Positions 7,811 to 42,836 of a stretch of 64,000 nt of DNA are shown here, in pieces. The notes beneath the pieces were generated by a model that was not told the origin of the DNA, did not search any database, and saw nothing but the letters and a program-made list of their open reading frames with translations. This DNA comes from Steroidobacteraceae bacterium. Its GTDB lineage: Bacteria > Pseudomonadota > Gammaproteobacteria > Steroidobacterales > Steroidobacteraceae. Every line of letters starts with the position of its first letter. Position 1 is the first letter of the stretch. A program made the position numbers and the translations under genes. The stretch covers positions 101,875-165,874 of the forward strand of contig DASYKM010000173.1 in the NCBI GenBank assembly GCA_035995425.1, read 5' to 3'.

Positions 7811-7837
7811 TGTCACAACCGCAAGGCTTGACTCGTC
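7811..7837 (+). promoter_or_regulatory. ECF41-type promoter motif TGTCACA-N16-CGTC upstream of the CMD gene
   Basis: TGTCACA at 7811-7817, 16 nt, then CGTC at 7834-7837, 39 nt upstream of the ATG at 7876. A 7-bp hairpin (ggtttcg/cgaaacc) lies at 7840-7860. Confidence 0.65.
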
Positions 7838-7875
7838 TAGGTTTCGTAAACATCGAAACCGAAGGAGTGAAAGCC

Positions 7876-8367: not shown

Positions 8368-8430
8368 CGTCGCGAGGCGTGCTTTCATCCGCGCCGGGCA
8401 CGGATGCCAATGGGACGCGAGCGCAGCGCG

Positions 8431-12281: not shown

Positions 12282-12770
12282 ATGAAGGCGAATCTGCACC
12301 GCATGGGCAAGGTCGATCATGTTGCGATCGCCGTGCGCGATCTGGACGCGGCGGTCGAGATGTATCAGTCGATTTTCGGCTTTGCACTGCTGAAAAGGCG
12401 CGAAGTGCAGGGCAAATTCTCCGGGATGCGCTCCGCCGAGATGGACGGCGGCAAGTTCACCATCGTGCTCATCGAAGGCACAGACCCCGCCTCGCAAGTC
12501 TGCCGCTATGTGGACCGTTACGGCCCCGGCGTGCAGCACATCGCCATCGTCGTCGACAACCTCGAAGCGACCGCGCGGCAGCTAGCCGACTCAGGGGCGC
12601 AGTTCGCCACCGAGATAATCCGCGGCGACGGGCTGCTGCAGCTGTTCACGAAGCGCGAAGACAACAGCGGAATGATGTTCGAATTCATCGAGCGCACCGA
12701 AGTCACTGGCTTCCAGGCGCAGAACATCCAGAAGCTCTTCGATCAACTGGAGAGTACCGCGGCTTACTGA
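12282..12770 (+). CDS. stand-alone HPPD / hydroxymandelate-synthase-like catalytic (C-terminal) barrel, VOC superfamily
   Basis: 162 aa. 'VDHVAIAV', 'SGMRSAEM', 'ASQVCRYVDRYGPGVQHIAI', 'LLQLFT', 'FEFIERTEVTGF..NIQKLFDQLE' track the Fe-binding C-terminal half of 4-hydroxyphenylpyruvate dioxygenases. 'ggggg' lies upstream of the ATG. Confidence 0.7.
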   Translation: MKANLHRMGKVDHVAIAVRDLDAAVEMYQSIFGFALLKRREVQGKFSGMRSAEMDGGKFTIVLIEGTDPASQVCRYVDRYGPGVQHIAIVVDNLEATARQLADSGAQFATEIIRGDGLLQLFTKREDNSGMMFEFIERTEVTGFQAQNIQKLFDQLESTAAY

Positions 12771-12805
12771 ACACATCTCGCGCGCGGCAAGGACAGGAGA
12801 AGGGG

Positions 12806-15793
12806 ATGACAGGTTCAGGGACGAGCGCGTCGGTGCGTTCGCGCGGAATGGCTTTCGATCCATCGCTTTGCATTCATGGGCTGGTTGAGCGGCAGGCGCA
12901 GCTCAGCCCGCGAAGCGTGGCGGTGAGCGACATGCGTGGCTCGTGCAGCTACGAGGAACTGGAGCGCGCGTCCGCGATTCTGGCGCGCCGGCTGCTTCGA
13001 TGCGGCGTGAAGCCGGACACCCTGGTCGGGCTCAGCGTACCGCGCGGCATCGACCTCATCGTCGGCGCGCTCGGCATCCTCAAGGCCGGCGGCGCCTACG
13101 TTGCACTCGACCCGTCCTATCCACCGCGACGGCTCGGCGAGATGGTCGAGGATGCAGCGCTGCGCGTGGTGGTGTGTACCCGCGCCACGCAAGCCGTCGC
13201 CGGTTCGGCGCATGCACTGCTGCTCGACGAAGATGACATCGCGGCCTCGGCACCGGAGGGCGTGCTCAACGCGCCGCGCAATCCGCAGGCAAGAAACCTC
13301 GCCTACGCGGTGTATACCTCCGGTTCCACCGGCCGGCCCAAGGCGTCGCTGCTCGAGCACCGCGGCCTGGTGAATCTCGCGCACGAGCAGTCGTTGCTGT
13401 TCGACGTTTCCACCCGCAGTCGCGTGTTGCAGTTCGCGTCCTTCTCATTCGATGCCGCGACATTCGAGTGGATCATGGCTCTCGCGAACGGTGCGCAGCT
13501 TTGTTTGCCCGACGAGCAGACGGTGAAGTCGCCGGCCGCGTTGTCGCGTTTCATCGCCGAACGTCAGATCACTCACGCCACCTTGCCTCCGGTGATGTTG
13601 GCCACGCTCGACCCGCAAGCGTGGCGTTCAGTCACGACGCTCATCGTCGCCGGCGAAGCCTGCAGTCGCGAACTCGCGGAGCGCTGGTGCGCAGGGCGCA
13701 GGTTCTTCAACGCGTATGGACCATCGGAGGTGACTGTGTGGTCGACCACCGGTGAATTCCGGCCCGGACAGCAGACAATCCACATTGGCCGGCCCATCGG
13801 CAATACGCATTGCCTGGTACTCGATGAAGCGCGCGCGCCGGTCGCGTCCGGCGAGGCGGGAGAGCTATATATCGCCGGCGTGGGAATTTCGCGCGGCTAT
13901 CTCCGGCGGCCGCAGCTCACCGCCGAGAGGTTCGTGCGAAATCCCTTTTCGCCCGCGCTCTCACCGCTCATGTTTCGCAGCGGTGATCGCGTGCGCGAGC
14001 TGCCCGACGGCAACTTCGAATTTCTCGGGCGTGTAGACCGCCAGGTCAAGGTGCGCGGCTTTCGCGTCGAGCCGGAAGAAATCGAAAGGTCCCTCGCCGA
14101 GCATCCGGCAGTCACGGCCGTCGCCGTCGAGCCGCAGCCGTGGCAAGGCACGAGCCGGCTGGTGGCTTACGTGGCGGTCGATGCCGGTTCGCTGTCCGGC
14201 GCCGACGCCGCGGCGGCCACCATGGCCCAGTGGGAAATTGCGTTCGATCGCACCTATCGCTCACGCAAACCAGCCTTCGCCGATTTCACCGGTTGGAACA
14301 GCAGCTATACGCGGGCCGCGATTCCGGAGCCGGCGATGCTCGGCTGGCGCGACGCCACCGTCGCGCGCATTCGGGCGTTCGCGCCGCGGCGATTGCTCGA
14401 GGTCGGTTGCGGTGCCGGGTTGCTGCTCGCGCCGCTGGTTGCGCACTGCGAGCACTACACGGCCACCGACATCTCCAGGGAGATAGTCGCCCGGCTCGCG
14501 CGCGACCTGCATCTGCTCGGCGAGAACGCGCGCAAGGTCGTGTGCCTCGCCGGCGCGGCGCACGAGCTCGAAGCGCTGGAAGGACAGCGCTTCGACACCA
14601 TCGTCATCAATTCCGTCATTCACTACTTCCCGAACGATCGCTTTCTGTGCGACACGCTCGCGCGTCTCATCGGCATGCTGAGCGAGGGAGGGCGCTTGTT
14701 CGTCGGCGACGTCCGCAACCTCAACTGGAATGAACAATTCCACGCTTCGGTGCTGCGCTTCCAGGGGCCATCGGATGCCGGGTTCTTCGAGCAGCGCCTG
14801 CGCGAGCGCTTGCGCACCGACCGCGAGCTGGTCGTTGCGCCCGAATTTTTCCTGAGCGCCGTGCGCGCCCTGCCGGGCGTGGAGTTCGTGGAAGTGCTGC
14901 CCAAGCTCGCGCGCGAAACCAATGAAATGAACGTCTTTCGTTACGACGCGATCATTCATCGCGCGGCGCCGGGCGCGCGGGCGGCCGTCAAGCCCGCGAC
15001 TCTGGAATGGGCATCGTCGCGGCGGGATTGGTCGGTGCAGCTGCACGAGCGATTCGCCGCGCAGGGCGCGCTCGTCATCCGGAATATTCCCAACGCGAGG
15101 CTCAGGAACGATGAGGATGCCGTCGATCCAGTCGAGTGGCTGGATCTCGCGCAGCGCCACGGCTGTGAAGTGGAGTTCGCCCTGGGCACGGGCTCGAACC
15201 ATGATCGCTTTCACGTGTTGCTGCGCCGTGGCGATCGCAACCCGGGCCTCACCGCGGCGATGTACGACGAGCCCATCGACACCACGCGCGAGCTCTGCAA
15301 CGACCCGCAGCGCAACCGCGTCGAACGCAGCCTCGAACCCGCGCTTCGCGAGCATCTGCGCGATCGGCTGCCGGCGTACATGGAACCGGCGGTCTTCGTG
15401 CTGTTGCCGGCGCTGCCGATGACGCTGAACGGAAAAATAGACCGACGGGCTCTTCCGATCCCCGATGCGAAGCCAACGGTCGAAGACGATTTGTCGCTCA
15501 CCGCCACCCAGCGGTTGCTGCGCGCCATCTGGCAACGACTGCTCGGCGCGCGGGAGTTCGGCATCAACGACAGCTTCCTCAGCGTCGGCGGCGATTCGTT
15601 GAGCGTCGTCAGCCTGGCGGCGGAGATCCACCAGCATTTCGACACCGACCTCGACTGGGCCGAGCTGCAGGGATCCACGCTGGCAACGCTCGCCGAACGC
15701 ATCGAGCTGCGGATCGCGGAGCGCACATCGCTCGCGGCGCAGCTGCAGATCGATCCACGGACCCAGGCTTCGCGCGAGGTATTGCGACTATGA
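12806..15793 (+). CDS. NRPS initiation module: A domain interrupted by a methyltransferase, then T (A(MT)-T)
   Basis: ATG at 12806 with 'ggagaagggg' upstream. A3 'LAYAVYTSGSTGRPKA', A5 'NAYGPSE', A7 'GELYIAGVGISRGYL', A8 'GRVDRQVKVRGFRVEPEEIE'. Then SAM motif 'LLEVGCGAGLL', A9 'LPAYMEP', A10 'NGKIDRRAL' and PCP 'GGDSL' (Ser codon 15596-15598). No C domain. Confidence 0.9.
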   Translation: MTGSGTSASVRSRGMAFDPSLCIHGLVERQAQLSPRSVAVSDMRGSCSYEELERASAILARRLLRCGVKPDTLVGLSVPRGIDLIVGALGILKAGGAYVALDPSYPPRRLGEMVEDAALRVVVCTRATQAVAGSAHALLLDEDDIAASAPEGVLNAPRNPQARNLAYAVYTSGSTGRPKASLLEHRGLVNLAHEQSLLFDVSTRSRVLQFASFSFDAATFEWIMALANGAQLCLPDEQTVKSPAALSRFIAERQITHATLPPVMLATLDPQAWRSVTTLIVAGEACSRELAERWCAGRRFFNAYGPSEVTVWSTTGEFRPGQQTIHIGRPIGNTHCLVLDEARAPVASGEAGELYIAGVGISRGYLRRPQLTAERFVRNPFSPALSPLMFRSGDRVRELPDGNFEFLGRVDRQVKVRGFRVEPEEIERSLAEHPAVTAVAVEPQPWQGTSRLVAYVAVDAGSLSGADAAAATMAQWEIAFDRTYRSRKPAFADFTGWNSSYTRAAIPEPAMLGWRDATVARIRAFAPRRLLEVGCGAGLLLAPLVAHCEHYTATDISREIVARLARDLHLLGENARKVVCLAGAAHELEALEGQRFDTIVINSVIHYFPNDRFLCDTLARLIGMLSEGGRLFVGDVRNLNWNEQFHASVLRFQGPSDAGFFEQRLRERLRTDRELVVAPEFFLSAVRALPGVEFVEVLPKLARETNEMNVFRYDAIIHRAAPGARAAVKPATLEWASSRRDWSVQLHERFAAQGALVIRNIPNARLRNDEDAVDPVEWLDLAQRHGCEVEFALGTGSNHDRFHVLLRRGDRNPGLTAAMYDEPIDTTRELCNDPQRNRVERSLEPALREHLRDRLPAYMEPAVFVLLPALPMTLNGKIDRRALPIPDAKPTVEDDLSLTATQRLLRAIWQRLLGAREFGINDSFLSVGGDSLSVVSLAAEIHQHFDTDLDWAELQGSTLATLAERIELRIAERTSLAAQLQIDPRTQASREVLRL
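14198..15340 (+). other. methyltransferase domain inserted between A8 and A9 of the loading A domain (approximate bounds)
   Basis: SAM-binding motif I 'LEVGCGAGL' at 14390-14416. 'TIVINSVIHYF' and 'GGRLFVGDV' follow. An insertion of about 380 aa lies between 'LVAYVAV' and 'LPAYMEP'. Confidence 0.75.
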
Positions 15794-15957
15794 ATGCGAC
15801 GTCGGTCCTGACGGTGCTCTTCAACAAGGGCGTACACGTCTCGACGCAGGACGACGAGCTCGTCATCGATGCGCCGAAAGGCGCGCTGCAGGCCGAGGAC
15901 GTCATGTTGATACGCGAGCATCGCGACGACATCGTCGACCTGCTGCGCCAGATCAAG
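15790..15957 (+). other. TubC_N-like NRPS docking domain
   Basis: 'VLTVLFNKGVHVSTQDDELVIDAPKGALQAEDVMLIREHRDDIVDLL' fits the pattern L..L...Gv.l..eGd.L.v.aP.gaL...l...l..hk..l..lL. Confidence 0.6.
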
Positions 15958-18900
15958 ATGCAGCGCGAGGCCGCCACCCCCGTGATCAGCGTGCAGCACG
16001 ACGGCCACGCGGCGTTGTCGGACATCCAGCAGAACGTGCTGCTCATGGAGGGCATGGCGCCGTCGATACCCTACGGGAACATCCCGCTGGCCTTCATGAT
16101 CGAGGGCGCGCTCGATCGAGCGGCGCTCGGCAAATCGCTGGACGCAGTCATTTCGATGCACGAAATCCTGCGCACCACGTATGTGGTCCGAGGCGATCGC
16201 ACCGTGCAGCAGATCGCGCCGGCGTCGTCGTTGCCGCTCGCTTTCACGGACTTTGCGCTCGAGCCCGACACAGAGGCCAGGATCGAAGCCGCGTTGCGCC
16301 AGCACGAGGCGCGACACTTCGACCTCGCCAGGGAATTGCCGGTGCGTGCCATGCTGTTGCGGCTCGCGCCTGGGCGTTACGTGCTCAGCCTGGTGTTTCA
16401 CCAGGTGGCGATGGATGGCCACAGCTGCCAGTTGTTCGTGCGCTACCTGTCCGAGACCTACGCGCGGATAGCGGCCGGTTCTGGCGAATCGCCGGCGGCG
16501 TTCGCCGGGCATCAATACGTGGACTTCGCCGATTGGCAGCGGCGCAGCGAGAAATCGCCTAACTATCGCCAGGCAGTGGCGTTCTGGAAAGACTCACTGG
16601 CCGGCGCTCCGGCGCTGCACGGCATACCCGGCGATTTCCTGCGGCCCGCGATCCAGACGTTCGCCGGCAGGACGCTCGCGACGGAGCTGGCGGCGCAGGA
16701 CCTTGCCCGCATCGAGCAGTTCGCGCGCGATCATGAAACCAGCGTATTCACCGTGCTGCAGGCGGCGTTCGCGCTGCTGGTGGCGCGCTACAGCGACTGT
16801 CACGATGTCGTGATCGGTACGGCCGTGGCGAATCGCACGCGCCGCGAATTCTTCGGCACGCTCGGCAACCTCGTGAACACGCTCGCGTTCCGCTTCGATC
16901 TCGAAGCGCCGCGGACTTTTGCCGGCCTGGTCGAGCACGCGAAACAGGTCATCGACCGCGCGATGCAGAACCAGCAGGTGCCGTTCAACGTGATCGTGGA
17001 CCAGGTGCGCCCCGCGCGCAGCTTCTCGCACAACCCGCTGGTGCAGCTCATGCTGGTCATCCAGGAAGAAGAGCAGACGCAGCTCTGCCTCGCCGGTACC
17101 ACCGTGACGCCGATGTTTCGCGATCCCGGCGTCGCCAAATTCGACCTGACACTGCACGTGTACAAACAAAGTGGCGGCGCGGCGCTGCGCTGGGAATTCA
17201 ACACCGCGCTGTTCCGCGACAACACGGTGACGAGGTTCGCGCGCCATTTCCAGGAACTGCTGCTGCGATGTATCGCCAGTCCGGAATACGACCTTGCGCA
17301 GTTGCCGCTGCGGGTGGACCGGGCGACGGGCCACGGTGCGCCCGAGGCCAGCGATTTCCCCGCGCCGGTGTGCATACACGATCTCATCGCGCGGCAGGTG
17401 CGCGAGACGCCGCTGAATATCGCGATCGCTGATGCGCACGGGCATCTCACCTACGCGGAGCTGGAAGCACAGGCCGAGAGAGTGGCATCGCACCTTCGCG
17501 CCCATCGTCCACGTGACCAGGAGTTCCGTGTCGCGATTTTCTGCGAACGTTCCGCACGGCTCGTCGTGGCTCTCTACGCGACGCTCAAGGCGGGCGGCGT
17601 CTACGTGCCGCTCGATCCGGCGTATCCGGAGGCGCGCATCGGATTCATGCTCGAGGATTCCGGCGCATCGCTGGTTCTCGGCGACGGCAGCGCACCGCAG
17701 ACCACATTGCCGGTGCTCGATCTGGCGGCGCTGTTGGCGGCCGAGGTGTCGACGCCGGCCGTTCAAACCACCGCCGCCGATTCCGCGTACGTCATCTACA
17801 CCTCGGGCTCTACCGGCAAACCCAAGGGCGTACTCGTATCGCATCGCAGTCTTTTCCACTCGCTGTCAGCCAACAAGGCGCTGATGCGGTTTGACGCATC
17901 GGATGAGATTCCCTGTCTCGGCTCTCAGGCTTTTGGCATTTCGCTGCTGGAGATCCTGCTGCCGCTCGTGAGCGGCGCCTGCGTGCGCATGCTCGCCCGC
18001 GATGCGATCCGCGATCTCGATCTGCTGATCTCGTCCACGCAGGACGCGACCATCCTGCACGCGGTGCCGAGCCTCATGTCGCGATGGCTGGAGCGGGTCG
18101 TGGAGCAGGGTGGCGGCGGCTATGAAAAGCTGCGCCTGCTGCTGGTCGGTGGCGAATCGGTCGCCGACGATCTGTTGCGCGCGATTCGCGCCTGGCGCCC
18201 GGACGTGGAGCTGATCGAGCTCTATGGCATGACCGAATCGGCCGTGGTCTGCGCCAGCTATCGCCCGGGCGCGAATTACTCCGCGCACTATTGCATCGGC
18301 AAGCCGCATCCCACGGCGAGCTTCTACGTCCTCAATCGTCATCTGCAGCAGCAGCCACCCGGCGTGCCCGGCGAGCTGCACATCGGCGGATTGAGTCTCG
18401 CGTCGGGATATCTCAATCAGCCGGAGCTCACCGCGCAGAAATTCATCCCCCATCCGTTCGCGACCGGCGAGCGCCTCTACAAGACGGGCGATCGCGTACG
18501 GCTGCTGCACGACGGACAGTTCGAGTTCCTCGGGCGCGTCGACCACCAGGTGAGTCTGCGCGGCGTGCGCATCGAGCCCGGCGAGATCGAAGCGCTGCTG
18601 GCGGCGCACGGCGACGTCAAGAAGGCCGTGGCGCACGTGGTCAAACTACCCAACGGCGAAGCGACGCTGGTCGCCTACTACACCACCGGCGAGCCGCCGG
18701 CCGACATCGCCACCCTCAACGAATCGTTGCGCGGGCACCTGTCGCGCTATCTGCCCGACTACATGCGGCCCACGTTGTACCAGCACCTGTCGGCGCTGCC
18801 GCTCAATCCCAACGGCAAGGTGGATCGCAACGCGTTGCCGATGCCGGTGGCCCATGTACGCGACGCGCCCCCCGAAACGCCGGCGGAGCGGCAGCTCGGC

Positions 18901-20906: not shown

Positions 20907-21082
20907 ACGCCGAAGCAGCCGGACGCGCTGACGTTGCCGACGTGATCGCGCAGTGCGCGCGCTCCGGCGTGCGCATGTCGGTCGACGGCGAGCAGTTGCG
21001 CCTGCAACTGCCGCAGGGTGGCATAGCACCCGCGCTGGTCTCGCTGATCCGGGAGAACAAGTCCGGTCTGATCCGGGCGCTC
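20903..21082 (+). other. TubC_N-like NRPS docking domain
   Basis: 'VADVIAQCARSGVRMSVDGEQLRLQLPQGGIAPALVSLIRENKSGLIRAL' has the same pattern as the NRPS2 N-terminus. Confidence 0.6.
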
Positions 21083-24000
21083 ACCGCCGTCAATGCCAGC
21101 GTCGCGAGACTCGCTCCGCCGCCGATGAAACGCGCGGCGCACGCGGGACGCCTGCCACTCGCCTACGGCCAGGAGAATCTGTGGCTGGGCGAGGAGCTGG
21201 CCGAGGTGGGCGACATGTCGCACCTCACCGTGGTCGTGAAGCTCCAGGGCACGGTGGATGTCGGTGCGCTGAAATCGGCGATTGCTTTCATCATCGAGCG
21301 ACACGCGCCGCTGCGAACCCGGTACCCGGAAGCGGCGGACGGAAGACCGTATCAGGAAGTGCTTTCCGCGGACGATACGCCCTTCGAATCGCTCGATCGG
21401 TCGGGCGCGGCGCCGCAGGTCATCGAGACCCTGTTAGGCGAGCTGCACCGGCGGCGTTTCTGGCTCAAAGACGGATTTCCTTGCCGCAGCACGCTCATCC
21501 GGCTCGCGAACGAGCAGCACATCTTCGTTTTCACGACGCATCACATCTGCTCCGATGGATGGTCGATCGGCGTGCTGCTGCGGGAGATCGGCGAGTGCTA
21601 CAACGCCGTCGCCCGGGGCCGCGCGCCGTCATGCCCGCCGCTCGAGATCGAATATTCCGATTACGCACTGTGGCAGAAGGACGCGGAAGAGTCGGCGTGG
21701 TTCGGCGCGGGACTGCGGTACTGGAAGGAGCGGCTCAAGGATCCGCCGGCGCTGCATGGCCTGCCTCTCGACCGGCCGCGACCGACGGTTCAGTCGTATG
21801 CGACGGCTCGCGTGAGCCACGACATCGATGTCGCCACCCTGCGGCGGCTCGAGACCTTCGCGCGCGCGCAAGGCACGACCTTGTTCGTCGTGCTGATGAG
21901 TGCCTTCGGAATGCTGGTGCATCGCTACAGTGGTGACGAAGACATGATCGTCGGCACGCCGATCGCCAACCGGCTGCGCGACGAGATGTCCCCGCTCGTC
22001 GGACTCTTCATGAACGTGCTGGCGATGCGGCTGCGCATCCAGGCCGCCGACACGGGTGCGGACTTCATCGCGCGCACGCATGCGCACTATCTGCGCGACA
22101 TCGAGCACCAGGGCATCCCCATCGAGCGCGTGGCGGTCGAGGTGGCGCGCGAGTCGAAGGCCTCGAGCCATGCACCACTCGCGCAATTGTCGTTCGTGCT
22201 GCACAACAACGTCGTCGCCGAAGTATCCATGCAGGGTCTCCAGTGCCGCACGGAGTTCACGCTGCCGGGCGCGTCGGTCTATGAGCTCAACGTGTCCGCG
22301 CACGAGACGGCACAGGGACTGCATTTCGACTGGCAGTACAACACCGGCATTTTCGACCCGGACCGCATCGGCCGCATGGCCGCGCACTTCGCCTCTCTGC
22401 TGCGCGATCTGCTGAAGTCGCCGCGCAAGCGCGTCGGCCAGCTGCGGATGATCTCCGACGAAGAGCAGGCGGCGTTGCTCACGCTCGGCAACGACAGTGC
22501 GACGCCGTACGCGCCCGAAGTGGCGTTCCACGAATTGTTCGAAGCGCGTGCCGCGAGCGACCCGCGCAAGATCGCGGTGATCTGCGGCGAGCAGCGCCTC
22601 GACTACGATGCGCTGAACCGGCGCGCGAACCAGCTCGCGCACTGGCTGCGCGCGAGCGGCCGCGCGCAGGCGGATCTGCCCATCGGCGTGAGCCTCGAGC
22701 GCTCGGCGGACATGCTGGTGGCGCTGCTCGCGGTGGTGAAGGCCGGAGCCGCCTATCTACCGCTCGATCCGGCGTATCCCGCGGCACGGCTGGCCCACAT
22801 GGCCGGCCACGCCGGGGTGCGCACCGTGATTGCCTCGCGTGCCACCGCGGCGGGGGTCGGCGATCCGGCGGCGGCGGTACTGCTCGACGACGGCAGCTTC
22901 CGCGCGGTGCTCGAAGCGCAGCCGGACACCAATCCCTCGGCCACGACGGGCTGGCAGGGCGGCAACCGCCTCGCCTACGTGATCTACACCTCGGGATCCA
23001 CGGGTCAGCCGAAAGGCGTGATGATCGAGCATCGCAGCCTCACCAATTTCCTGCGTTCGATGCAGAAGGAACCGGGAATTCACACGGACGACGTGATGCT
23101 CGCTGTGACCACGCCGTCGTTCGACATCCACACCCTCGAGCTCTTCGCGCCGCTCGTGAGCGGTGCCACGGTGGTGATCGCCGGGCCCGGCGAATATGCC
23201 GATCCCGCCGAGCTCGCACGCCTCATCGACACGCACGCGGTATCCGTGGTCCAGGCCACGCCCACGACCTGGCTCGGGCTCATGGATTACGGCTGGTCGC
23301 CGCAGCGGGATCTCAAGGCCTTGTGTGGCGGGGAGGCGCTGCCCGAAGCGCTCCGGGACAAACTACTCGCGCGGCCACTGCTCGCGCTGTGGAACATGTA
23401 CGGACCCACCGAGACCTGCGTATGGTCGGCGGTCAAGCGCATCGAGAAAGACGTGGTGATCGGCCGGCCGATCGCCAACACCCGCTTCTACGTGCTCGAC
23501 CGCGAGCTGGCGCCGGTACCCATCGGCGTCGACGGCGATCTCTATATCGCGGGCGACGGCCTGGCACGCGGCTATCTGCATCAGCCCGAGCTCACGGCCG
23601 GGGCATTTCCGACGACGCTGCCGGCGTCGCTGCCGGAACAGCGCCTCTACAAGACTGGCGATCGGGTGTGCCGGCGCGCCGATGGCGACCTGGTCTTTCG
23701 CGGGCGGCAGGACCACCAGGTCAAGGTCAACGGCTTCCGCATCGAAACGGCGGAGGTGGCGGCCGCGCTCGAGACGCTGCCCGGCGTCAAACAAGCTGCC
23801 GTGGTTGTCAGGCAGCGCGCCAACGGCGCGTCATTTCTGGCGGCGTTCGTGGTGACTGATGGCGACGCGTGGTCGGCACGGGTGCTCGGCGCGCAACTGC
23901 AGATGCTGCTGCCACGCTACATGATTCCCGCGGTCATCGAGCGCCTGGAGCGCCTGCCACACACCGCGAACGGCAAGCTGGATTTGAAACAACTGGGCGC

Positions 24001-25663
24001 GCGTCCGCTGCAGACGCCGGAATTCGCCGCGGCGCAGTCCGTGGAGCTGCCGCAAACATCCGTCGAGCGTGCGATCGCCTCGGCGTGGACCGATCTGCTC
24101 GGCGTGCAAAGCCTCACGCTCGATGACGATGTGTTCGCGCACGGCGCCGACTCCATCCGCGTGCTCATGTTCATCGGGCGCATGCGCAAGCAAGGCCTGA
24201 AACTGCGGGTCGGCGACATCTATCGCCTGCCGACCGTGCGCGCGCTGGCCGGCATCGCCGAGCAGGTCGGCGATGACAGCGGTCGGTCGCTGTATTCCGG
24301 CCCGGCGCCGCTGCTCGCCGACCAGCTCGCGGCGCTCGGCAATGAGTTCGTGTGGCGCAAGTTCTTCATCAACTTCATGTTCGACCTGCCGCGGCCATTG
24401 GACCTCGCGATCCTGCAGCGTGCGTTCGAGCGGCTCGCCGGTACGCACGACGCCTTGCGCGCGCGACTCACGCGGACCGATGGCCGGTGGCGACAGCACA
24501 TTGCAGCGGAATGCGACCAGCCGGCGGTGTTTGCCGAGACCCTGGGCTGCGGTTGGCTCGAGGCGCAGGCGCCCGATGAGATCCGTGCCGCCACCGATCG
24601 TGTGCACGCGCGTCTGTCTATCGAGCAAGGGCCGCTGTCCTGCGCGGCCGAGATCGTCGACTCGCAGGGCGTGCGCAAGCTGCTGTTCTGCGTGAGCCAC
24701 CTCGTGGCGGACGGATTTTCCACCGTGGTGCTGCTCGAAGACCTCATCGAGGCCTACGCGGCGTTGCGAGCCGGTGCGCAGCCAGCGTCAGCCAACACCC
24801 TATCTATCGGCAAGTGGGCGCCGCTCTATCGTGAGTACGTGAGCTCCGCGGCGTTCTGCGCGCAGATTGCCTACTGGGAAGCGCTGCCGTGGAGCAGGTG
24901 CGCACCGTTGCCGCTCGATTATCCGCAGAACGATACGCCGCAGATCAACGTGGCGCATTCCTCCCAGCACACCGGACTGCAACTCGACGCCGCCTCGAGC
25001 CAGGCGGTACATCTCGATGTGCCGCGACAGCTCGGGATCACGGCGCGGAACTTCATCGCCATCGCGCTCGCGCGCGTGCTCATGCGCTGGAACGGAGCCG
25101 ATGCGGTGGCGCTCGACATCCACGACGCGGGGCGCCAGCACGTTCAGGACGCGCTCGGAATCGATCTGTCGCGGACCGTCGGCGCGTTCTCGATTCGCAA
25201 CCGCGTGCTGCTCGAGCGCGTGCCGGCCGCCGATGCACAGCGCGAGCTCCTGGAAATGCACCAGCAACTCGAGCTCATTCCGCAGGGCGGGGCGGGCCTG
25301 CTGCCGCTGCAGGTGGCCTGCGAACGTGAAGAGGTGGCCGAGCGGGCGCGCCGGATTCCGAAGGCCGAGGTGTGGTTCAACTATCTCGGGACTGTCAACG
25401 ACACGCTGTCGGCGCACGAGCGCGCCGATGCCGATATTCCCACGCGCATGTCCGAGGCCGTCCGCCACATCCAGGGCGTTACGCACGACCCGCGGACGCC
25501 GCGCGAGCGGACGCTGAGTCTCCTCGGCTTCGTCAGGAATGGCGTGCTCGAGCTCAGTTTCGAATACAGCGCGCAATTGCATCGCGAGGAAACCATCCGC
25601 GAGCTGGCGCAGCAGCTGCGCGTCGAGATGATGAACACACTGCGTGCCGTCGGCGCGATTTAG
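20903..25663 (+). CDS. NRPS termination module: docking-C-A(Gly-like)-T-terminal C domain
   Basis: ATG overlaps the exporter TGA. C3 'THHICSDGWS'. A3 'LAYVIYTSGSTGQPKG', A5 'NMYGPTE', A7 'GDLYIAGDGLARGYL', A10 'NGKLD'. PCP 'HGADSI' (Ser codon 24152-24154). Second C-like domain with 'SHLVADGFS'. No TE or R domain. Confidence 0.9.
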   Translation: MNAEAAGRADVADVIAQCARSGVRMSVDGEQLRLQLPQGGIAPALVSLIRENKSGLIRALTAVNASVARLAPPPMKRAAHAGRLPLAYGQENLWLGEELAEVGDMSHLTVVVKLQGTVDVGALKSAIAFIIERHAPLRTRYPEAADGRPYQEVLSADDTPFESLDRSGAAPQVIETLLGELHRRRFWLKDGFPCRSTLIRLANEQHIFVFTTHHICSDGWSIGVLLREIGECYNAVARGRAPSCPPLEIEYSDYALWQKDAEESAWFGAGLRYWKERLKDPPALHGLPLDRPRPTVQSYATARVSHDIDVATLRRLETFARAQGTTLFVVLMSAFGMLVHRYSGDEDMIVGTPIANRLRDEMSPLVGLFMNVLAMRLRIQAADTGADFIARTHAHYLRDIEHQGIPIERVAVEVARESKASSHAPLAQLSFVLHNNVVAEVSMQGLQCRTEFTLPGASVYELNVSAHETAQGLHFDWQYNTGIFDPDRIGRMAAHFASLLRDLLKSPRKRVGQLRMISDEEQAALLTLGNDSATPYAPEVAFHELFEARAASDPRKIAVICGEQRLDYDALNRRANQLAHWLRASGRAQADLPIGVSLERSADMLVALLAVVKAGAAYLPLDPAYPAARLAHMAGHAGVRTVIASRATAAGVGDPAAAVLLDDGSFRAVLEAQPDTNPSATTGWQGGNRLAYVIYTSGSTGQPKGVMIEHRSLTNFLRSMQKEPGIHTDDVMLAVTTPSFDIHTLELFAPLVSGATVVIAGPGEYADPAELARLIDTHAVSVVQATPTTWLGLMDYGWSPQRDLKALCGGEALPEALRDKLLARPLLALWNMYGPTETCVWSAVKRIEKDVVIGRPIANTRFYVLDRELAPVPIGVDGDLYIAGDGLARGYLHQPELTAGAFPTTLPASLPEQRLYKTGDRVCRRADGDLVFRGRQDHQVKVNGFRIETAEVAAALETLPGVKQAAVVVRQRANGASFLAAFVVTDGDAWSARVLGAQLQMLLPRYMIPAVIERLERLPHTANGKLDLKQLGARPLQTPEFAAAQSVELPQTSVERAIASAWTDLLGVQSLTLDDDVFAHGADSIRVLMFIGRMRKQGLKLRVGDIYRLPTVRALAGIAEQVGDDSGRSLYSGPAPLLADQLAALGNEFVWRKFFINFMFDLPRPLDLAILQRAFERLAGTHDALRARLTRTDGRWRQHIAAECDQPAVFAETLGCGWLEAQAPDEIRAATDRVHARLSIEQGPLSCAAEIVDSQGVRKLLFCVSHLVADGFSTVVLLEDLIEAYAALRAGAQPASANTLSIGKWAPLYREYVSSAAFCAQIAYWEALPWSRCAPLPLDYPQNDTPQINVAHSSQHTGLQLDAASSQAVHLDVPRQLGITARNFIAIALARVLMRWNGADAVALDIHDAGRQHVQDALGIDLSRTVGAFSIRNRVLLERVPAADAQRELLEMHQQLELIPQGGAGLLPLQVACEREEVAERARRIPKAEVWFNYLGTVNDTLSAHERADADIPTRMSEAVRHIQGVTHDPRTPRERTLSLLGFVRNGVLELSFEYSAQLHREETIRELAQQLRVEMMNTLRAVGAI
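24305..25660 (+). other. terminal condensation-like (CT-type) domain, approximate bounds
   Basis: About 450 aa after the last PCP. The active-site motif is SHxxxDG ('VSHLVADGFS', 24695-24715) rather than HHxxxDG. Confidence 0.7.
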
Positions 25664-25671
25664 GGGAACGC

Positions 25672-27702
25672 ATGGCGACCGGGCAACCTCTCGAATACGA
25701 ACGTCTGATCGTGCCGCGCGCGCGCCGGAAAGCCTCCGGGCCCGCGCGTGCCACGATTCTCAAGACTGCGCTCACGCGCCTCGACTATCACGGCCTCAGG
25801 AAGGTGGATGTCGACACCGGCACCGGCAGTCCGCGCTTCGAGCCGCAGAGCGCGCCCGACCTGCTGACCGTGTGCCTCACGGCCTATAACGAAGAGGTCT
25901 CCGCCTATCACACCTCGCTGAGCGCGCTGGCGCGCGGCGCGGACTATTTCGTCGGCGCGGGCGAGCCGCGCATCGGCCAGGAGTTCACCATCTGCATCCT
26001 GGTCGATGGCATCGAGCGCATGTCGGCGGGCTTTGCGGCCTATGCCCAGCGGCTGGGCATCTATCAACCGGCGCTGCTCGATCCGCGCGCCGACTATCAC
26101 CTGTTCGAGTCGTCCATCGACCGTCACCTGCTGCAGTTCGCGCCGCAGGACCTGCCGGCGCAGGGCGATCACGAAGCCGCGCTGCGCCGCGAGGCCGGCA
26201 ATCTCACCAATCTCACGCCGGAGGCGAATCGCCAGCGCATCGTGCTGTTCATCAAGCGCGATAACCGCGGCAAGCTCGATTCGCACCGCTGTTTTTTCGA
26301 GATCGCCTGCCGGGAAACGCGGCCGGCGTACTTCCTGCAGGTCGACGTGGGTACCAGCCCCGACGCGAGCGCGGTGCACGAGATGTGGCGCAGCATCGCG
26401 CACTCGGCCAACGTCGCCGCCGTCTCGGCGCGTTCGCACATGCCGTTGCCGCAGGGCGCCACCGACTTGTTAGGGTCGTGGCAATACGGTGACATCGCCA
26501 TCGAGCGCATCCTGCTCTGGCCCACCGAGATGCTCATGGGCTACATGAGCGTGCTGTCGGGACAGTTGTGCCTCACACGCAGCGATGCGGTGTGGCGCAA
26601 GCAGCCGGTTGCACCGGCGGCGAACGACGAGTTCGCCGCGCCACCGCCCGCCAACGGGCGCGTCATGCAGAGCTATCTACGCGGGCTGGAGCAGCTCGGA
26701 CCGTTCGAATCGAACATGTTCCTGGCCGAGGACCGCATCCTCGGGCTCGAGATCGTGTTTCAGCCGGACAGCCGTTGGGAGCTCGGTTACGTTCCGCAGG
26801 CGAACGCGGCCATCGACAAGTGCGAAAGCTGGAACGAGTTGCTGTGCCAGCGCCGCCGCTGGAAATGCAGCAGCGTTGCCTGCCGCCTGTGGATGTTCAC
26901 GCGCGTGCTCGACTACGCGCGAAGCGCCAACCGCACGCTGCCGCAGAAGCTGCGCATTCTTTCGGCCACCAGCTTTCACGCCGCGTATTTCCTCATCGAG
27001 TGGCTGATGCCGGCGTTCGCGGTGCTCATCTTCTCGTCGTTGCATCACTTCGCCGCCCTGGCCGTCGGCGCGGGCGGCCCATGGCGCGCGCTGGTAGATG
27101 CGAGCTTCTTCGGGCTGCTGGCGCTGCTTGGCACGCAGCTGGCGGTGTCGGCGTCGGGGCGGATCACGGCGGCCACCAATCGCTTCTATGGATTCTCGAT
27201 CGCCTGCCAGACGCTCTACACCTTGTGCATGACGGCGCTGGTGATCGGTGGCAACCTGCATGTAGCGGCGATCGTGAAGCCCCTGACATTGCTGGCCGTG
27301 ATGTTAGTCGCGGTCCTGGTTCTCGCGCATGGTTACGCGCGCGAGGTGTTTCGCGGCCTGCTGCGCTGCCTGGTCACGTACTGGACGTCGCGCCCCGCGG
27401 TGTCTTTCCTGATCATGACTTATGCGGCGCTCAACTCGCACAACACCAGCTGGGGGACCAAGGGACTGACGCGTCCGCACTACCTCGACGAGGCCGTGCG
27501 GGCGGGGTTCGAACACTTCCGTCTCAAGACCGTGTTGCTGATGGTCGCCGCCAACGCGGGTTTCTATACGCTCGCCGTACGCGGCGGGTGGACCACGTCG
27601 TTCGCGGGGCTCGAGAGCGTGTTGTGGCTGCTGCTCGCACAGATCGGCGTGGCGTTCATCGGGCGCTTCGTCATCGCGTTGCGGAATCACAGGGCGTCCT
27701 GA
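25672..27702 (+). CDS. chitin synthase homologue (GT2, eukaryotic division-1 Chitin_synth_1-like)
   Basis: ATG lies 9 nt after the NRPS3 stop. 'CLTAYNEE', 'ICILVDGIE', 'KRDNRGKLDSHRCFF', 'LQVDVGT', 'SVLSGQLCLTR', 'NMFLAEDRILGLEIV' (EDR 26728-26736), 'QRRRW' (26848-26862). Multi-helix C-terminal region with 'NTSWGTKG' (27448-27465). Confidence 0.8.
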   Translation: MATGQPLEYERLIVPRARRKASGPARATILKTALTRLDYHGLRKVDVDTGTGSPRFEPQSAPDLLTVCLTAYNEEVSAYHTSLSALARGADYFVGAGEPRIGQEFTICILVDGIERMSAGFAAYAQRLGIYQPALLDPRADYHLFESSIDRHLLQFAPQDLPAQGDHEAALRREAGNLTNLTPEANRQRIVLFIKRDNRGKLDSHRCFFEIACRETRPAYFLQVDVGTSPDASAVHEMWRSIAHSANVAAVSARSHMPLPQGATDLLGSWQYGDIAIERILLWPTEMLMGYMSVLSGQLCLTRSDAVWRKQPVAPAANDEFAAPPPANGRVMQSYLRGLEQLGPFESNMFLAEDRILGLEIVFQPDSRWELGYVPQANAAIDKCESWNELLCQRRRWKCSSVACRLWMFTRVLDYARSANRTLPQKLRILSATSFHAAYFLIEWLMPAFAVLIFSSLHHFAALAVGAGGPWRALVDASFFGLLALLGTQLAVSASGRITAATNRFYGFSIACQTLYTLCMTALVIGGNLHVAAIVKPLTLLAVMLVAVLVLAHGYAREVFRGLLRCLVTYWTSRPAVSFLIMTYAALNSHNTSWGTKGLTRPHYLDEAVRAGFEHFRLKTVLLMVAANAGFYTLAVRGGWTTSFAGLESVLWLLLAQIGVAFIGRFVIALRNHRAS

Positions 27703-27706
27703 GCGC

Positions 27707-28207
27707 ATGCAAGCGAACGCCATGACCGACATGCTCGTGCGGCTCTACGACCTGCCGCCCGTGGAGCCGATGCTGGCCGACTTCGCCGCACACGGCATCA
27801 CGGTCCGGCGGCCGCGCGCCTATGAGAAGAGCCTCGTGGTCGAGTGGGTCGCCAAGACCTTCAGCGCCGGCTGGGCGAGCGAATGCGACGTCTGCTTCGC
27901 GCGGGTTCCGGTGTCCGCCCACATCGCCACGCGCGACGGCGAGATCATCGGCTTTGCCTGCCACGAGAGCACGTACCGCAACTTCTTCGGTCCGGTCGGA
28001 GTGCTCGAGGAGTACCGCGCCGACGGGCTCGGCAAGTGCCTGCTGCTCGCGAGCCTGCACGCCATGCGCGACCTTGGCTATGCCTACGCCATCATCGGCG
28101 GACCCACGGATGCCGTGGGCTTCTACGTCCAGGCGGTCGGCGCGTCGCGCATCGACGGATCGAGCCCGGGCATCTACGTGGACCGTTTGCGCGGCTCGGA
28201 TAGCTAG
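27707..28207 (+). CDS. GNAT-family N-acetyltransferase
   Basis: Starts 5 nt after the CHS stop; ATG at 27722 is an alternative. GNAT core 'GPVGVLEEYRADGLGKCLLLASLHAMRDLGYAYAII'. Confidence 0.7.
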   Translation: MQANAMTDMLVRLYDLPPVEPMLADFAAHGITVRRPRAYEKSLVVEWVAKTFSAGWASECDVCFARVPVSAHIATRDGEIIGFACHESTYRNFFGPVGVLEEYRADGLGKCLLLASLHAMRDLGYAYAIIGGPTDAVGFYVQAVGASRIDGSSPGIYVDRLRGSDS

Positions 28208-28219
28208 CCAGGAAGACCC

Positions 28220-29224
28220 ATGCCCTCAACACCCCAGGCCGTCGACGTGCTCGACCGCATCGATCGCTGCACCTATCTCGAGCAGTACCGGTTTCGCAAG
28301 CCGTTCCTGCTGCGCGGCGGCGCGACGCACCTGCCCGCGTATCGCAAGTGGACGCTGGAATATCTCGAGAGCCAGATCGCCGACGTCATCATCCAGCCGC
28401 TGATCTATGAAGAAGACAAGCGCGACTATTCGCGGGCGAAATTCCTCGAGATGACGTTCCGTGATTTCGCGCGCGAGATCCGCTCCAGTAACTCGCGCAT
28501 GCTCTATTGGTTCGAGGGCCCCGCGTCGGCGAATTTCTGGGGCGGTGCGGGCAAGCAGGCGCGCGTGAACACCGAGCTCGCCATGCTCGCTGCCGATTTC
28601 GCGCCGCCGACGTTCCTGCACGAATCCGAGCTCATCTACGCGCAGATGATCCTCGGCACCGGCAAGAACGGCACCGTGGTCCACCACGACTACGGCGGCG
28701 AAGCGAAATGCCTGATGCAGCTCATTGGCGAGAAGCACGTGCTCCTCATCCCGCCGCAGCACGGGCGGGCGCTCAAGCTGCATCCGATCACCGGGCAGAA
28801 GAACTTCACCATCAGTACCCTCGACCTGCGCGGCGGCGACTTCAGGGCCATTGCCGACGATGCGCCGCTGTTCGAGGCGCGCATCCGCCCCGGTGATGTG
28901 CTGTATTGGCCGTCATTCTGGCTGCACGACGTCGCCAACGAAGGCGCGATCAACTTCGCGATCACCGTGCCGGTCGACGAGATGCCCGTGAACGCGCTCA
29001 TGTTGCGGCACCTGCTGGCCGAGAATCTGTCGCGACTTCGGCAGCTCGATCCGCAGCTGCGCATCTCGAGCGACGCGATTGCGCAGCTCGAGCAGGAGCT
29101 GCTCGATCACACCAGCGTCAACACGCTGTGGGATCTGCATACCGCCTCGATTGCCTATCGCGGCAAGCACTGGCGGCCGCGCCAGGAGCCGGAGATGACC
29201 GCGATCGCGGAACCCGCCGGTTGA
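28220..29224 (+). CDS. JmjC / cupin_8-type Fe(II)/2-oxoglutarate oxygenase-like protein
   Basis: 'FRKPFLLRGGATHLPAYRKWTLEYL'. HxD in 'TVVHHDYGG', 'LIGEKHVLLIPP', distal His in 'GDVLYWPSFWLHDV'. Confidence 0.7.
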   Translation: MPSTPQAVDVLDRIDRCTYLEQYRFRKPFLLRGGATHLPAYRKWTLEYLESQIADVIIQPLIYEEDKRDYSRAKFLEMTFRDFAREIRSSNSRMLYWFEGPASANFWGGAGKQARVNTELAMLAADFAPPTFLHESELIYAQMILGTGKNGTVVHHDYGGEAKCLMQLIGEKHVLLIPPQHGRALKLHPITGQKNFTISTLDLRGGDFRAIADDAPLFEARIRPGDVLYWPSFWLHDVANEGAINFAITVPVDEMPVNALMLRHLLAENLSRLRQLDPQLRISSDAIAQLEQELLDHTSVNTLWDLHTASIAYRGKHWRPRQEPEMTAIAEPAG

Positions 29225-30428: not shown

Positions 30429-30534
30429 CGATCCCCCGGAGTGCGTCACTGTTAGTGGTCTCTGGGTCGGAAAATCCTTCGCGATGAATCCTCACACTGG
30501 CGGCACCGATCGCTAGAATCGCGGCTCACCGCCC

Positions 30535-38986: not shown

Positions 38987-38994
38987 GCGTTTAT

Positions 38995-42303: not shown

Positions 42304-42310
42304 GCTAGGT

Positions 42311-42350
42311 GGCGGGCCCGTCAGTTACAGCTGCCGGGCCCGCCTTGTTC
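42311..42350 (+). terminator. rho-independent-type hairpin after the NTPase-TPR gene
   Basis: Perfect 10-bp stem ggcgggcccg (42311-42320) / cgggcccgcc (42335-42344), 14-nt loop, then 'ttgttc'. Confidence 0.5.
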
Positions 42351-42829: not shown

Positions 42830-42836
42830 TAGGGGT

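Follow-up and report, generated by a model that had tools for sequence, protein, structure and literature searches.

What does a chitin synthase homologue do among the genes of a nonribosomal peptide synthetase (NRPS) cluster? The question is raised by a 64,000-nucleotide stretch of DNA from a Steroidobacteraceae bacterium (GenBank assembly GCA_035995425.1, contig DASYKM010000173.1, positions 101,875 to 165,874; hereafter the window, with a G+C content of about 64-65%). Here, eight genes follow one another on the same strand from position 12282 to 29224, overlapping or spaced by 4-35 nt, as judged from a listing of open reading frames (ORFs) and from direct reading of the junctions. Three of them encode the subunits of an NRPS, and the gene for the chitin synthase homologue (CHS) stands immediately after the last of these. 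We consider it very probable that a single product arises jointly from the NRPS and the chitin synthase module. Less certain, and in our estimate slightly below an even chance, is the overall mechanism that we propose: a peptide-decorated chito-oligosaccharide built by Nod-factor-like logic, with its chemistry read from gene content and adjacency.

From 5′ to 3′, the eight genes encode a single-barrel metalloenzyme of the VOC type resembling HPPD and HmaS ("mini-HPPD", 12282-12770), the initiation subunit NRPS1 (12806-15793), the subunit NRPS2 (15790-19170), an ABC exporter with fused permease and ATPase (19167-20906), the subunit NRPS3 (20903-25663), CHS (25672-27702), a GNAT-fold acyltransferase (27707-28207) and a homologue of JmjC/Cupin_8 Fe(II)/2-oxoglutarate oxygenases (28220-29224). 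A 35-nt spacer separates the first two and contains a strong Shine-Dalgarno ribosome-binding site, GGAGAAGGGG. ATGA overlaps at 15790, 19167 and 20903 join NRPS1 to NRPS2, NRPS2 to the exporter and the exporter to NRPS3, and short gaps follow between NRPS3 and CHS (8 nt), CHS and GNAT (4 nt), and GNAT and JmjC (12 nt). An earlier note, made from the letters of this stretch, had described eight compact, co-directional genes with these domains, the 35-nt gap and the three overlaps, all of which the ORFs, Pfam and the junctions bear out; its last three gaps (9, 5 and 13 nt) were each one nucleotide too long. It had also drawn the unit as 12282-29224. The genes within those limits are real, but the start lies upstream, at genes on the same strand for a YdjC-family carbohydrate de-N-acetylase (8404-9261) and a YdhS-type FAD/NAD(P)-binding flavoprotein (9270-10610), giving ten core genes over approximately 8404-29224. 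Promoter and terminator scans gave signals no higher than shuffled background and are uninformative on operon structure. No match was obtained in an Rfam scan of the window, and a megablast comparison of the 17-kb span with PLSDB plasmids returned short generic NRPS or ABC matches only.

The CHS gene encodes a division-1 type GT2 protein that matches Pfam Chitin_synth_1 at 60.2 bits (cut-off 25), with a start codon backed by the N-termini of homologues. In an alignment of 22 sequences including two fungal chitin synthases, the catalytic motifs TAYNE, DVGT, WQYGD, LAEDR, QRRRW and SWGTKG are invariant. All PDB matches at E ≤ 0.001 are chitin synthases (7STL, 7WJM and 7XS6, from Candida, Phytophthora and yeast, at 3e-25 to 9e-23). 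A hydropathy scan places five to six hydrophobic segments in the C-terminal third (aa 437-670), and the N-terminus is short and lacks Chitin_synth_1N. The protein thus has the motifs of a division-1 chitin synthase and is predicted to be catalytically intact. Bacterial chs genes of eukaryotic origin were reported in 2016, with a proposed role in chitin exopolysaccharide (EPS) or chito-oligosaccharide secretion; those of T. turnerae and C. mixtus were found to sit inside secondary-metabolism clusters, for which neither anatomy nor function was given (Gonçalves et al., PMC5122149).

We compared the locus with contigs encoding CHS relatives, each looked up individually and labelled with an L-number. 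Such relatives are few: about 28 bacterial ones among 5.8 billion clustered proteins, and 21 loci of the CHS subfamily in a scan of one genome per species (185,579 species). A scan of metagenome contigs with the subfamily CHS alignment was swamped by matches at 22-28% identity, probably eukaryotic chitin synthases, because conserved CHS patterns are shared; it left three usable short contigs (L033, L036 and L037), all carrying CHS-GNAT-Cupin_8. In three metagenomic loci (L001; L002/L031; L113/L114 with L032), the gene order is the same as in the window: A-MT-T, dock-C-A-T, ABC, dock-C-A-T-C*, CHS, GNAT (A, adenylation; MT, methyltransferase; T, carrier; dock, TubC_N docking; C, condensation; C*, the terminal condensation-family domain). 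Protein identity to the window is 54-82% in these loci, which occur with or without Cupin_8 and amid unrelated flanks. L031 and L002 lie on one 309-kb ENA contig, on which ligA is followed by all ten genes in window order and these by rotamase and BolA genes. Housekeeping genes therefore flank exactly ten genes, which sets the boundaries of the unit. The YdjC-flavoprotein-VOC-NRPS1 head also occurs on JGI 3300056388, a partial view of the order. Because this gene order recurs in independent loci, at least four of them metagenomic, the arrangement in the window is not due to chance. The earlier note had held that its reading would fall if the CHS, GNAT and JmjC genes were not conserved with the NRPS genes. 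Instead, CHS-GNAT, with or without Cupin_8, follows the three-protein NRPS and the exporter in L001, L002/L031 and L113/L114, and does so with variations in L005, L006/L015 and L012.

Although NRPS architecture and flanks differ among the loci, the junction between NRPS and CHS is kept over a range of CHS identities from 67% to 31%. In L005 (CHS 54% identical), the genes encode MBOAT, an unknown protein, YdjC, flavoprotein, CHS, a stand-alone condensation-family protein, GNAT and Cupin_8, with larger NRPS genes nearby. The Cellvibrionaceae metagenome-assembled genomes (MAGs) L006/L015 and L012 (CHS 40%) have dock-C-A-T, ABC, C-A-T-C*, CHS, YdjC, flavoprotein, FkbM-type methyltransferase, GNAT, Acyl_transf_3 and Cupin_8, and in L016/L017 (CHS 31-32%) a C-A(Gly)-T-C-A(Gly)-T-C* synthetase abuts CHS. 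At another locus, a Condensation/BAHD-like transferase adjoins CHS. An uncultured Bacteroidetes MAG (L020, 8478-13432; CHS 28%) has a LytTR response regulator and a NusG-like gene before CHS and a stand-alone Condensation protein directly after it, and the pairing of CHS with a condensation-family protein thus reaches beyond Proteobacteria.

Other relatives carry CHS in different company. The cultured shipworm symbiont Cellvibrionaceae bacterium 1162T.S.0a.05 (L013; LANB01000001.1, 7334-21802) encodes Cupin_8, a type II thioesterase, CHS, YdjC, flavoprotein, two sulfotransferases, a penicillin-amidase-type acylase, an ABC exporter and FAAL joined to an acyl carrier protein (FAAL-ACP). A Steroidobacter MAG (L007/L010) has YdjC, flavoprotein, DUF1796, an ABC exporter, CHS and a GlcNAc (N-acetylglucosamine) 2-epimerase; no NRPS is visible on the 16.8 kb L007 contig, where a TonB-dependent receptor adjoins the CHS-epimerase pair. 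Enterobacterial relatives (L008, L026-L028; CHS 25-29%) belong to a DUF1800/DUF1501 operon type with no NRPS, and no NRPS lies near the cyanobacterial relatives. In one of the latter, Tolypothrix campylonemoides VB511288 (L018, 9878-12788), the CHS homologue is truncated, with a DDE transposase after it, in agreement with the disrupted gene described previously (PMC5122149). The CHS of the window shares its family and its short N-terminus without Chitin_synth_1N with the bacterial chs genes of that study. Those, however, are mainly of the enterobacterial DUF1800/DUF1501/epimerase operon type, to which L008 and L026-L028 correspond, whereas the window represents a separate subfamily that reaches Steroidobacteraceae and has a defined ten-gene architecture.

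We conclude from these comparisons that CHS, YdjC, flavoprotein and ABC exporter form a "sugar module", that CHS is recurrently linked to a condensation-family domain, and that the acyl-donor module varies between a tripeptide NRPS, a Gly-Gly NRPS and FAAL-ACP. Two sets of neighbouring genes were considered as further members and rejected, as no homologue was found in any related locus: a beta-lactamase-fold gene at 29229-30449, as a SurE-like stand-alone cyclase or release enzyme, and a CMD-family gene (7828-8367) with an ECF sigma gene (6921-7808). Beta-lactamase-fold (serine hydrolase) genes in fact flank the region on both sides, at 5784-6860 and 29229-30449, and neither accompanies the cluster in other loci; of the two, the downstream gene is convergent, on the opposite strand, and ends 4 nt from the JmjC stop codon.

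The domain of NRPS3 that abuts CHS (24290-25663) is unusual. Pfam assigns it to Condensation, but its best PDB matches are epimerisation (E) domains (PvdL, 9e-41; TycA 2XHG, 4e-31; GrsA 5ISW, 1e-25), with ordinary C domains matching at 1e-10 or weaker. A HMMER search of 1.8 billion representatives gave, as the nearest relatives outside the CHS-linked family, E domains located inside large NRPSs. In the sample inspected, HHLVVDG, EGHGRE and FNYLGQ are present in most, with variants of EGHGRE in two or three. The terminal domain retains the His (SHLVADG), and its EGHGRE position reads HDAGRQ in the window. We defined the CHS-linked family as the domains of the window, L001, L002, L113, L006, L012, L016 and L017, in all of which the domain abuts CHS (CHS identity 67% to 31%), together with a 47%-identical homologue in L005 that is encoded by a stand-alone gene translationally coupled between CHS and GNAT. 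Across these nine members the consensus is xD[APTS]GR: H, N, L or F replaces the Glu, and an Asp has become newly fixed.

The domain cannot work as an ordinary epimerase, because the Gly loaded upstream is achiral and the catalytic Glu of the epimerase has been lost, although the His is kept. We conclude that the terminal domain is E-derived and presumably has a new function, and it is the obvious candidate for an off-loading transferase that releases the chain. The earlier note had proposed release by a terminal C domain. Release at this position is plausible, but the domain is closest to E domains rather than to ordinary C domains and lacks the epimerase Glu, so that release by a terminal C domain is not a routine inference in this case. 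Nothing relevant on terminal E domains was found in the literature searched.

The synthetases upstream of this domain form a three-module line. Pfam delineates NRPS1 as A (interrupted by MT)-T, NRPS2 as TubC_N dock-C-A-T and NRPS3 as TubC_N dock-C-A-T followed by the second Condensation-family domain. The three AMP-binding domains match at E-values of 6e-69 to 2e-84, the equivalents of Lys517 lie in NGKIDR, NGKVDR and NGKLDL (A1 to A3), and all three synthetases have a PP-binding domain whose motif (GGDSLS, GGNSLL and GADSIR) contains the Ser for phosphopantetheine attachment. The three synthetases lack a thioesterase (TE; Thioesterase) or reductase (R; NAD_binding_4) domain in Pfam, and tblastn and motif searches of the window gave no significant match to MbtH or Sfp, which is a weak negative. 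Both results agree with the earlier note, which saw no TE, R domain, MbtH-like gene or phosphopantetheinyl transferase.

We re-derived the Stachelhaus codes of the three A domains against GrsA, with the numbering verified on PDB 1AMU. A1 reads DAFTIAAVWK, matching the Phe code at 7/10 positions, and A3 reads DILQLGMVWK, matching the Gly code at 8/10; both are identical to the codes given in the earlier note. The last module has a Gly code in every variant of the cluster. The MT region of NRPS1 matches that of TioS, an interrupted A domain that N-methylates the backbone (5WMM, 2.2e-48), and a sub-threshold match to NodS (25.7 bits) reflects the general class I methyltransferase fold; only about eight full-length orthologues of NRPS1 were found. 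On these codes and domains, the unit of module 1 is predicted to be an N-methylated aromatic or hydrophobic residue and that of module 3 to be Gly.

Module 2 departs from this pattern. The code of A2 is GILHLGLVVK, with Val at position 331, where the earlier note had wrongly read GILHLGLVCK; its observation that Asp235 is missing stands, the position being Gly. Asp235 is missing from A2 in every orthologue, with the code G[IV]LHLGLV[VC]K conserved. The C domain of NRPS3 is canonical (HHICSDG); in that of NRPS2, which reads HQVAMDG (within FHQVAMDG), Gln substitutes for the second His, the residue that is normally catalytic. The HQxxxDG form occurs in all six orthologues examined, down to 40% identity, and L001, L002, L032, L006 and L012 keep both Gly235 and HQ. 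We found nothing relevant on an HQxxxDG condensation motif in the literature searched. Module 2 is thus non-canonical throughout, suggesting that the unit it incorporates lacks a normal alpha-amino group. The building blocks proposed in the earlier note, a methylated aromatic or hydrophobic residue, an unusual non-alpha-amino unit and Gly, are consistent with the TioS-type MT, the A2 domain without Asp235 and the Gly-like A3.

A possible source for the unit of module 2 is encoded by the first of the eight genes. The VOC protein (162 aa; Pfam Glyoxalase) corresponds to the catalytic C-terminal barrel of HPPD and HmaS, rather than to the two-barrel enzymes of approximately 350-400 aa, and its NCBIfam 4HPPD match (6.8e-26, 91.6 bits) is below the cut-off of 277. 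Its best PDB match is 3ZGJ (deposited as 4-hydroxyphenylpyruvic acid dioxygenase, 8.4e-16), followed by glyoxalase and methylmalonyl-CoA epimerases and then by 2R5V and HPPDs. The His/His/Glu metal ligands, located in DHVA, GPGVQH(I/L)A and FEFIER by comparison with 3ZGJ, and the LLQxFT...FEFIxR tail are conserved, including in L031 and L032 (three orthologues), so that the label "mini-HPPD" used in the earlier note is apt. The gene lies directly upstream of NRPS1 in L031 (87% identity), L032 (71%) and JGI 3300056388, and in L031 it is the most conserved of the set. An attractive possibility is that this enzyme makes an aryl alpha-hydroxy acid or other non-amino acid for module 2.

The remaining genes would act on a sugar or on the finished product. 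YdjC (Pfam YdjC, 3.9e-40) has sub-threshold NCBIfam matches to carbohydrate deacetylase, chitin disaccharide deacetylase and HpnK (46.9 bits against a cut-off of 232.6). Its gene, at 45-71% identity where measured, is found beside or near CHS or NRPS1 in L031, L005, L006, L007, L012, L013, L014 and JGI 3300056388. The exporter passes the cut-off of NCBIfam TIGR01194 for cyclic peptide export (342.7 against 286.2 bits), which places it in the SyrD/PvdE type, and is retained across CHS loci (36-82% identity), among them L007, whose contig shows no NRPS. The GNAT protein (166 aa; Pfam Acetyltransf_1, 6.6e-6) is among the most conserved products of the cluster, with 60-75% identity in L001, L002, L005, L006, L012, L113, L033, L036 and L037, where its gene mostly stands directly after CHS or the E-like gene. 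Its alignment has 78 invariant columns; a profile search of PDB gave weak generic acetyltransferase matches only, and a single-sequence AlphaFold2 model reached a pLDDT of 38. The JmjC homologue (Pfam Cupin_8, 5.8e-25) has JMJD5, TYW5, JMJD7 and FIH as its nearest PDB relatives. Its iron triad HxD...H is intact, with VVHHD and FWLHDV aligning to the JMJD5 ligands, and is conserved in five orthologues. Cupin_8 is present in L002, L005, L006, L013, L033, L036 and L037 and absent after GNAT in L001 and L113.

The flavoprotein is translationally coupled to YdjC: NCBI places its start at 9270, and an alternative GTG codon at 9258 overlaps the stop codon of YdjC. Among 5.8 billion proteins, only 27 homologues were found, several of them on contigs that also bear a CHS-subfamily gene. 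Pfam gives NAD_binding_9 (PF13454) only, not K_oxygenase, and no PDB relative was found by sequence. Foldseek searches with an AlphaFold2 model (pLDDT 87.7) return flavoproteins with two dinucleotide-binding (two-Rossmann) domains. The best whole-length superpositions are with PvdA, KtzI, SidA, lysine 6-monooxygenase and FzmM (TMq 0.55-0.61), compared with 0.35-0.54 for thioredoxin and ferredoxin reductases; the similarity to the N-hydroxylating monooxygenases (NMOs) comes at an rmsd of 6-7 Å and 13-17% identity, with Foldseek E-values no better than those for the reductases. The model hints at an N-hydroxylating monooxygenase. Between the flavoprotein and VOC genes, on the opposite strand, lies a gene for a GH1 beta-glucosidase (10535-12079; Pfam Glyco_hydro_1, 3e-168; NCBIfam TIGR03356 above cut-off) whose 3′ end overlaps that of the flavoprotein gene by 76 nt. 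It is a doubtful member, not found at this position in L031, L032 or JGI 3300056388, with a 47% homologue approximately 8 kb from CHS in L012. The GH1 gene may be a coincidence, or may encode a trimming or activation enzyme.

In the mechanism that we prefer, the NRPS would assemble a tripeptide-like chain of an N-methylated aromatic or hydrophobic residue, a unit without a normal alpha-amino group, which the mini-HPPD may supply by processing an aryl-keto acid, and Gly. In parallel, the membrane CHS would make a beta-1,4-GlcNAc oligomer or short chain from UDP-GlcNAc. YdjC would take off one N-acetyl group to leave a free glucosamine (GlcN) amine, and the flavoprotein may N-hydroxylate or otherwise oxidise the deacetylated unit. 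The sugar nitrogen would then attack the Gly-thioester on the last carrier, catalysed by the terminal E-derived domain or alternatively by GNAT, and release would give an N-peptidyl chito-oligosaccharide, to be hydroxylated by the JmjC enzyme and exported by the ABC transporter. Alternatively, the peptide would be joined to GlcN first, and the peptidyl-GlcN would then prime CHS. This order would agree with reported work in which yeast chitin synthase takes 2-acylamido GlcNAc analogues as primers and extends them (PMC4007471). The FAAL-ACP and sulfotransferases of L013 resemble a gene set for a lipo-chito-oligosaccharide with NodH-like sulfation, and the FkbM-type methyltransferase and Acyl_transf_3 O-acyltransferase of L006 are typical oligosaccharide decorations and fit the same picture.

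Several points weigh against this peptidyl chito-oligosaccharide mechanism. CHS, whose activity is itself predicted, could make a polymer rather than an oligomer, and could do so on either side of the membrane. E-type domains are not known to pass a peptide on to a sugar amine, and the acceptor proposed for the terminal domain is a candidate; the transferase might be GNAT, which might otherwise just restore an acetyl group. For the flavoprotein, assignment as an N-hydroxylase rests on TM-scores of 0.55-0.61 at 13-17% identity, and what A2 activates and what the mini-HPPD does are conjecture. L013, L014 and L007 have no condensation-family domain in the available sequence, which makes the link between CHS and such a domain frequent rather than universal, and the lack of Cupin_8 in L001 and L113 means that this enzyme is not essential.

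If CHS were instead a tailoring glycosyltransferase (GT), the terminal domain would hydrolyse or cyclise the peptide to release it, or would hand it to a small amine, the JmjC enzyme would hydroxylate a residue, CHS would O-glycosylate it with one or a few GlcNAc units, and YdjC and GNAT would remodel the N-acyl group. A hydroxylase with an intact HxD...H triad is usually present to supply such an attachment point, the deacetylase and GNAT together suit an acyl swap on an attached sugar, and YdjC has its sub-threshold similarity to HpnK, the partner of a GT2 in hopanoid GlcN formation. Yet CHS is unlike a soluble tailoring GT, retaining all the motifs of a processive, membrane-embedded chitin synthase (QRRRW and SWGTKG among them) along with a multi-helix C-terminal region. 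Moreover, CHS, YdjC, flavoprotein and ABC exporter occur in L007 with no NRPS in view and in L013 with FAAL-ACP and sulfotransferases, the hydroxylase is missing from the otherwise complete L001 and L113, and the repeated tight adjacency of a condensation-family domain to CHS would be left unexplained. We regard this alternative as unlikely.

Still less probable, in our view, is a hydroxamate or siderophore-like product, in which the flavoprotein would N-hydroxylate a GlcN amine or an amino-acid side chain and GNAT or the terminal domain would N-acylate it, giving an iron-binding glycopeptide with PvdE-like export. An NMO, a GNAT, an NRPS and a PvdE-type exporter form the classic hydroxamate siderophore set. 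The flavoprotein model superposes best over its whole length with PvdA, KtzI, SidA, lysine 6-monooxygenase and FzmM, and its second nucleotide-binding motif, GAAASAIE, resembles GGGQSAAE, which we take to be the corresponding NMO motif; in L007, a TonB-dependent receptor stands beside the CHS-epimerase pair. The fold similarity is modest, however, with Foldseek E-values that do not separate NMOs from disulfide reductases and a Pfam assignment to NAD_binding_9 rather than K_oxygenase. In or next to the cluster of the window there is no TonB receptor (the nearest lies 22 kb away), iron-regulation feature or other chelating unit, and this model alone does not explain CHS.

We also considered that two independent functions might be co-located, a chitin-like EPS operon (CHS, YdjC and others) and an unrelated small NRPS peptide. 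Chitin EPS or chito-oligosaccharide secretion has been proposed for bacterial chs genes (PMC5122149), and the enterobacterial relatives in DUF1800/DUF1501 operons, like the cyanobacterial ones, have no NRPS beside them. In the window, however, the genes lie on one strand and overlap or are spaced by 4-35 nt, and the NRPS-CHS junction persists from 67% to 31% CHS identity while architecture and flanks vary. YdjC and the flavoprotein are on the far side of the NRPS genes from CHS, such that the two sets are interleaved rather than juxtaposed, and the NRPS has no release domain of its own. We regard mere co-location as improbable. Finally, target-copy genes within clusters are a known genome-mining signal, and the NRPS could make an antifungal peptide directed at chitin synthase, with CHS as a captured target copy serving as sensor or decoy. 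The eukaryotic origin of CHS (PMC5122149) would suit this idea, but we give it very little credence, as the bacterium has no essential chitin synthase to protect, all CHS catalytic motifs are conserved, and YdjC, the flavoprotein, the sulfotransferases and the adjacent condensation-family domains would go unexplained.

Of the known systems, the Nod-factor pathway (NodC/NodB/NodA with NodS, NodH, NodX/NodL and NodIJ) is closest in outline to the peptidyl chito-oligosaccharide mechanism. There, as proposed here, a GT2 makes a GlcNAc oligomer, one unit is deacetylated, the amine is acylated from a carrier thioester, and decoration and ABC export follow; relatives of the cluster also carry sulfotransferases, an FkbM-type methyltransferase and an Acyl_transf_3 O-acyltransferase. 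No component is orthologous, however. The window has a division-1 CHS instead of NodC, a YdjC-fold deacetylase instead of a CE4 enzyme and, as transferase candidate, an NRPS E-derived domain or GNAT instead of NodA; the acyl group would be a nonribosomal tripeptide rather than a fatty acid, and the hosts are Steroidobacteraceae and Cellvibrionaceae rather than rhizobia. Pfam and NCBIfam scans of all cluster proteins assigned none to the NodA, NodB or NodC family. The resemblance thus lies in the logic and not in the families.

Three further systems share parts of the proposed chemistry. In streptothricin and BD-12 biosynthesis, an N-acetyl-hexosamine loses its acetyl group, after which NRPS-type or Fem-like (glycine) enzymes acylate the C2 amine (PMC10156733); work cited in that paper includes a deacetylase for N-acetyl-D-gulosamine and amide-bond formation by a stand-alone adenylation domain. 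This work provides a precedent for acylation of a deacetylated sugar amine by NRPS-type or Fem-type enzymes (PMC10156733). Streptothricin differs in having a single gulosamine on streptolidine and a different glycosyltransferase, with no chitin synthase, YdjC, multimodular NRPS or E-type terminal domain. Vibriobactin VibH and the rhabdopeptide/xenortide-type synthetases use a condensation domain, either terminal or free-standing, to hand their product to a free amine, and share with the cluster the lack of TE and R domains, a C-terminal condensation-superfamily domain with no downstream carrier, and TubC_N docks on small subunits. In the cluster, by contrast, the terminal domain groups with E domains, reads SHxxxDG and has lost the Glu of EGHGRE, and its partner is CHS rather than an amine-forming decarboxylase. 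In hopanoid (HpnI/HpnK) and teicoplanin-type pathways, GlcNAc is added (HpnI being a GT2), the acetyl group is removed by an enzyme such as the YdjC-family HpnK, and a new acyl group is added. These pathways differ in that soluble or monotopic GTs place a single sugar on a lipid or peptide aglycone, and the HpnK match here is far below its cut-off.

The literature searched contains no characterised product of an NRPS with a chitin synthase and no later characterisation of the clusters noted in PMC5122149, in line with the view of the earlier note that this combination matches no characterised pathway; this assessment is based on the literature and on the rarity of homologues rather than on a comparison with MIBiG. 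What sets this NRPS cluster apart is its pairing with a carbohydrate polymerase, the E-derived domain at the end of NRPS3 and the non-canonical module 2, none of which is described in the literature searched.

Some features elsewhere in the window are of separate interest. A low-G+C island (37703-44865; 52-57%, compared with about 64% elsewhere) holds genes for a 427-aa AAA ATPase, for a STAND-type NTPase of 1119 aa that has TPR repeats and for a protein with RCC1 repeats, with an SRAP-domain gene just upstream; it looks horizontally acquired and possibly defence-related. A MarR winged-helix is fused to a GNAT domain in a 309-aa protein (33465-34394) encoded beside an FGE-sulfatase-family gene and a GH2 gene. 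The window also encodes unusually long DJ-1/PfpI-domain proteins of 401 and 696 aa (46694-47899 and 56726-58816) and, in its right-hand part, a GntR-aminotransferase fusion regulator.

What the cluster may mean for its hosts can be stated tentatively, as a possibility that we rate as less likely than not. Soil Steroidobacteraceae and marine Cellvibrionaceae would use a eukaryote-captured CHS as the core of a secondary-metabolite pathway for a new class of compounds, chito-oligosaccharides N-acylated with nonribosomal peptides (or, in relatives, with lipids plus sulfate), an epimerisation-type domain having been repurposed to move the peptide from the assembly line to the amine or hydroxylamine of a sugar. 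These compounds would be structural analogues of Nod and Myc factors, and their targets could be the LysM-type chitin receptors of fungi, plants or animal hosts. To our knowledge, the acylated chito-oligosaccharides that are well known are limited to symbiosis signals from rhizobia and mycorrhizal fungi, and peptidyl chito-oligosaccharides would constitute a new scaffold class. An E-derived terminal domain that delivers a chain to a carbohydrate nitrogen would be a new mechanism of NRPS release. Module 2, with its A domain lacking Asp235 and its HQxxxDG C domain, and the half-size HPPD are unexplained enzymology in their own right, and even if the product were an O-glycosylated peptide, the cluster would be uncharacterised, well delimited and, at about 21 kb, small enough for heterologous expression. 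If the proposal is true, it would also give a concrete function to the bacterial chitin synthases acquired from eukaryotes, whose role has been open since 2016, and would offer a way to ask whether non-rhizobial bacteria signal to chitin-sensing hosts, for which the relative in a cultured shipworm symbiont (L013) would be tractable.

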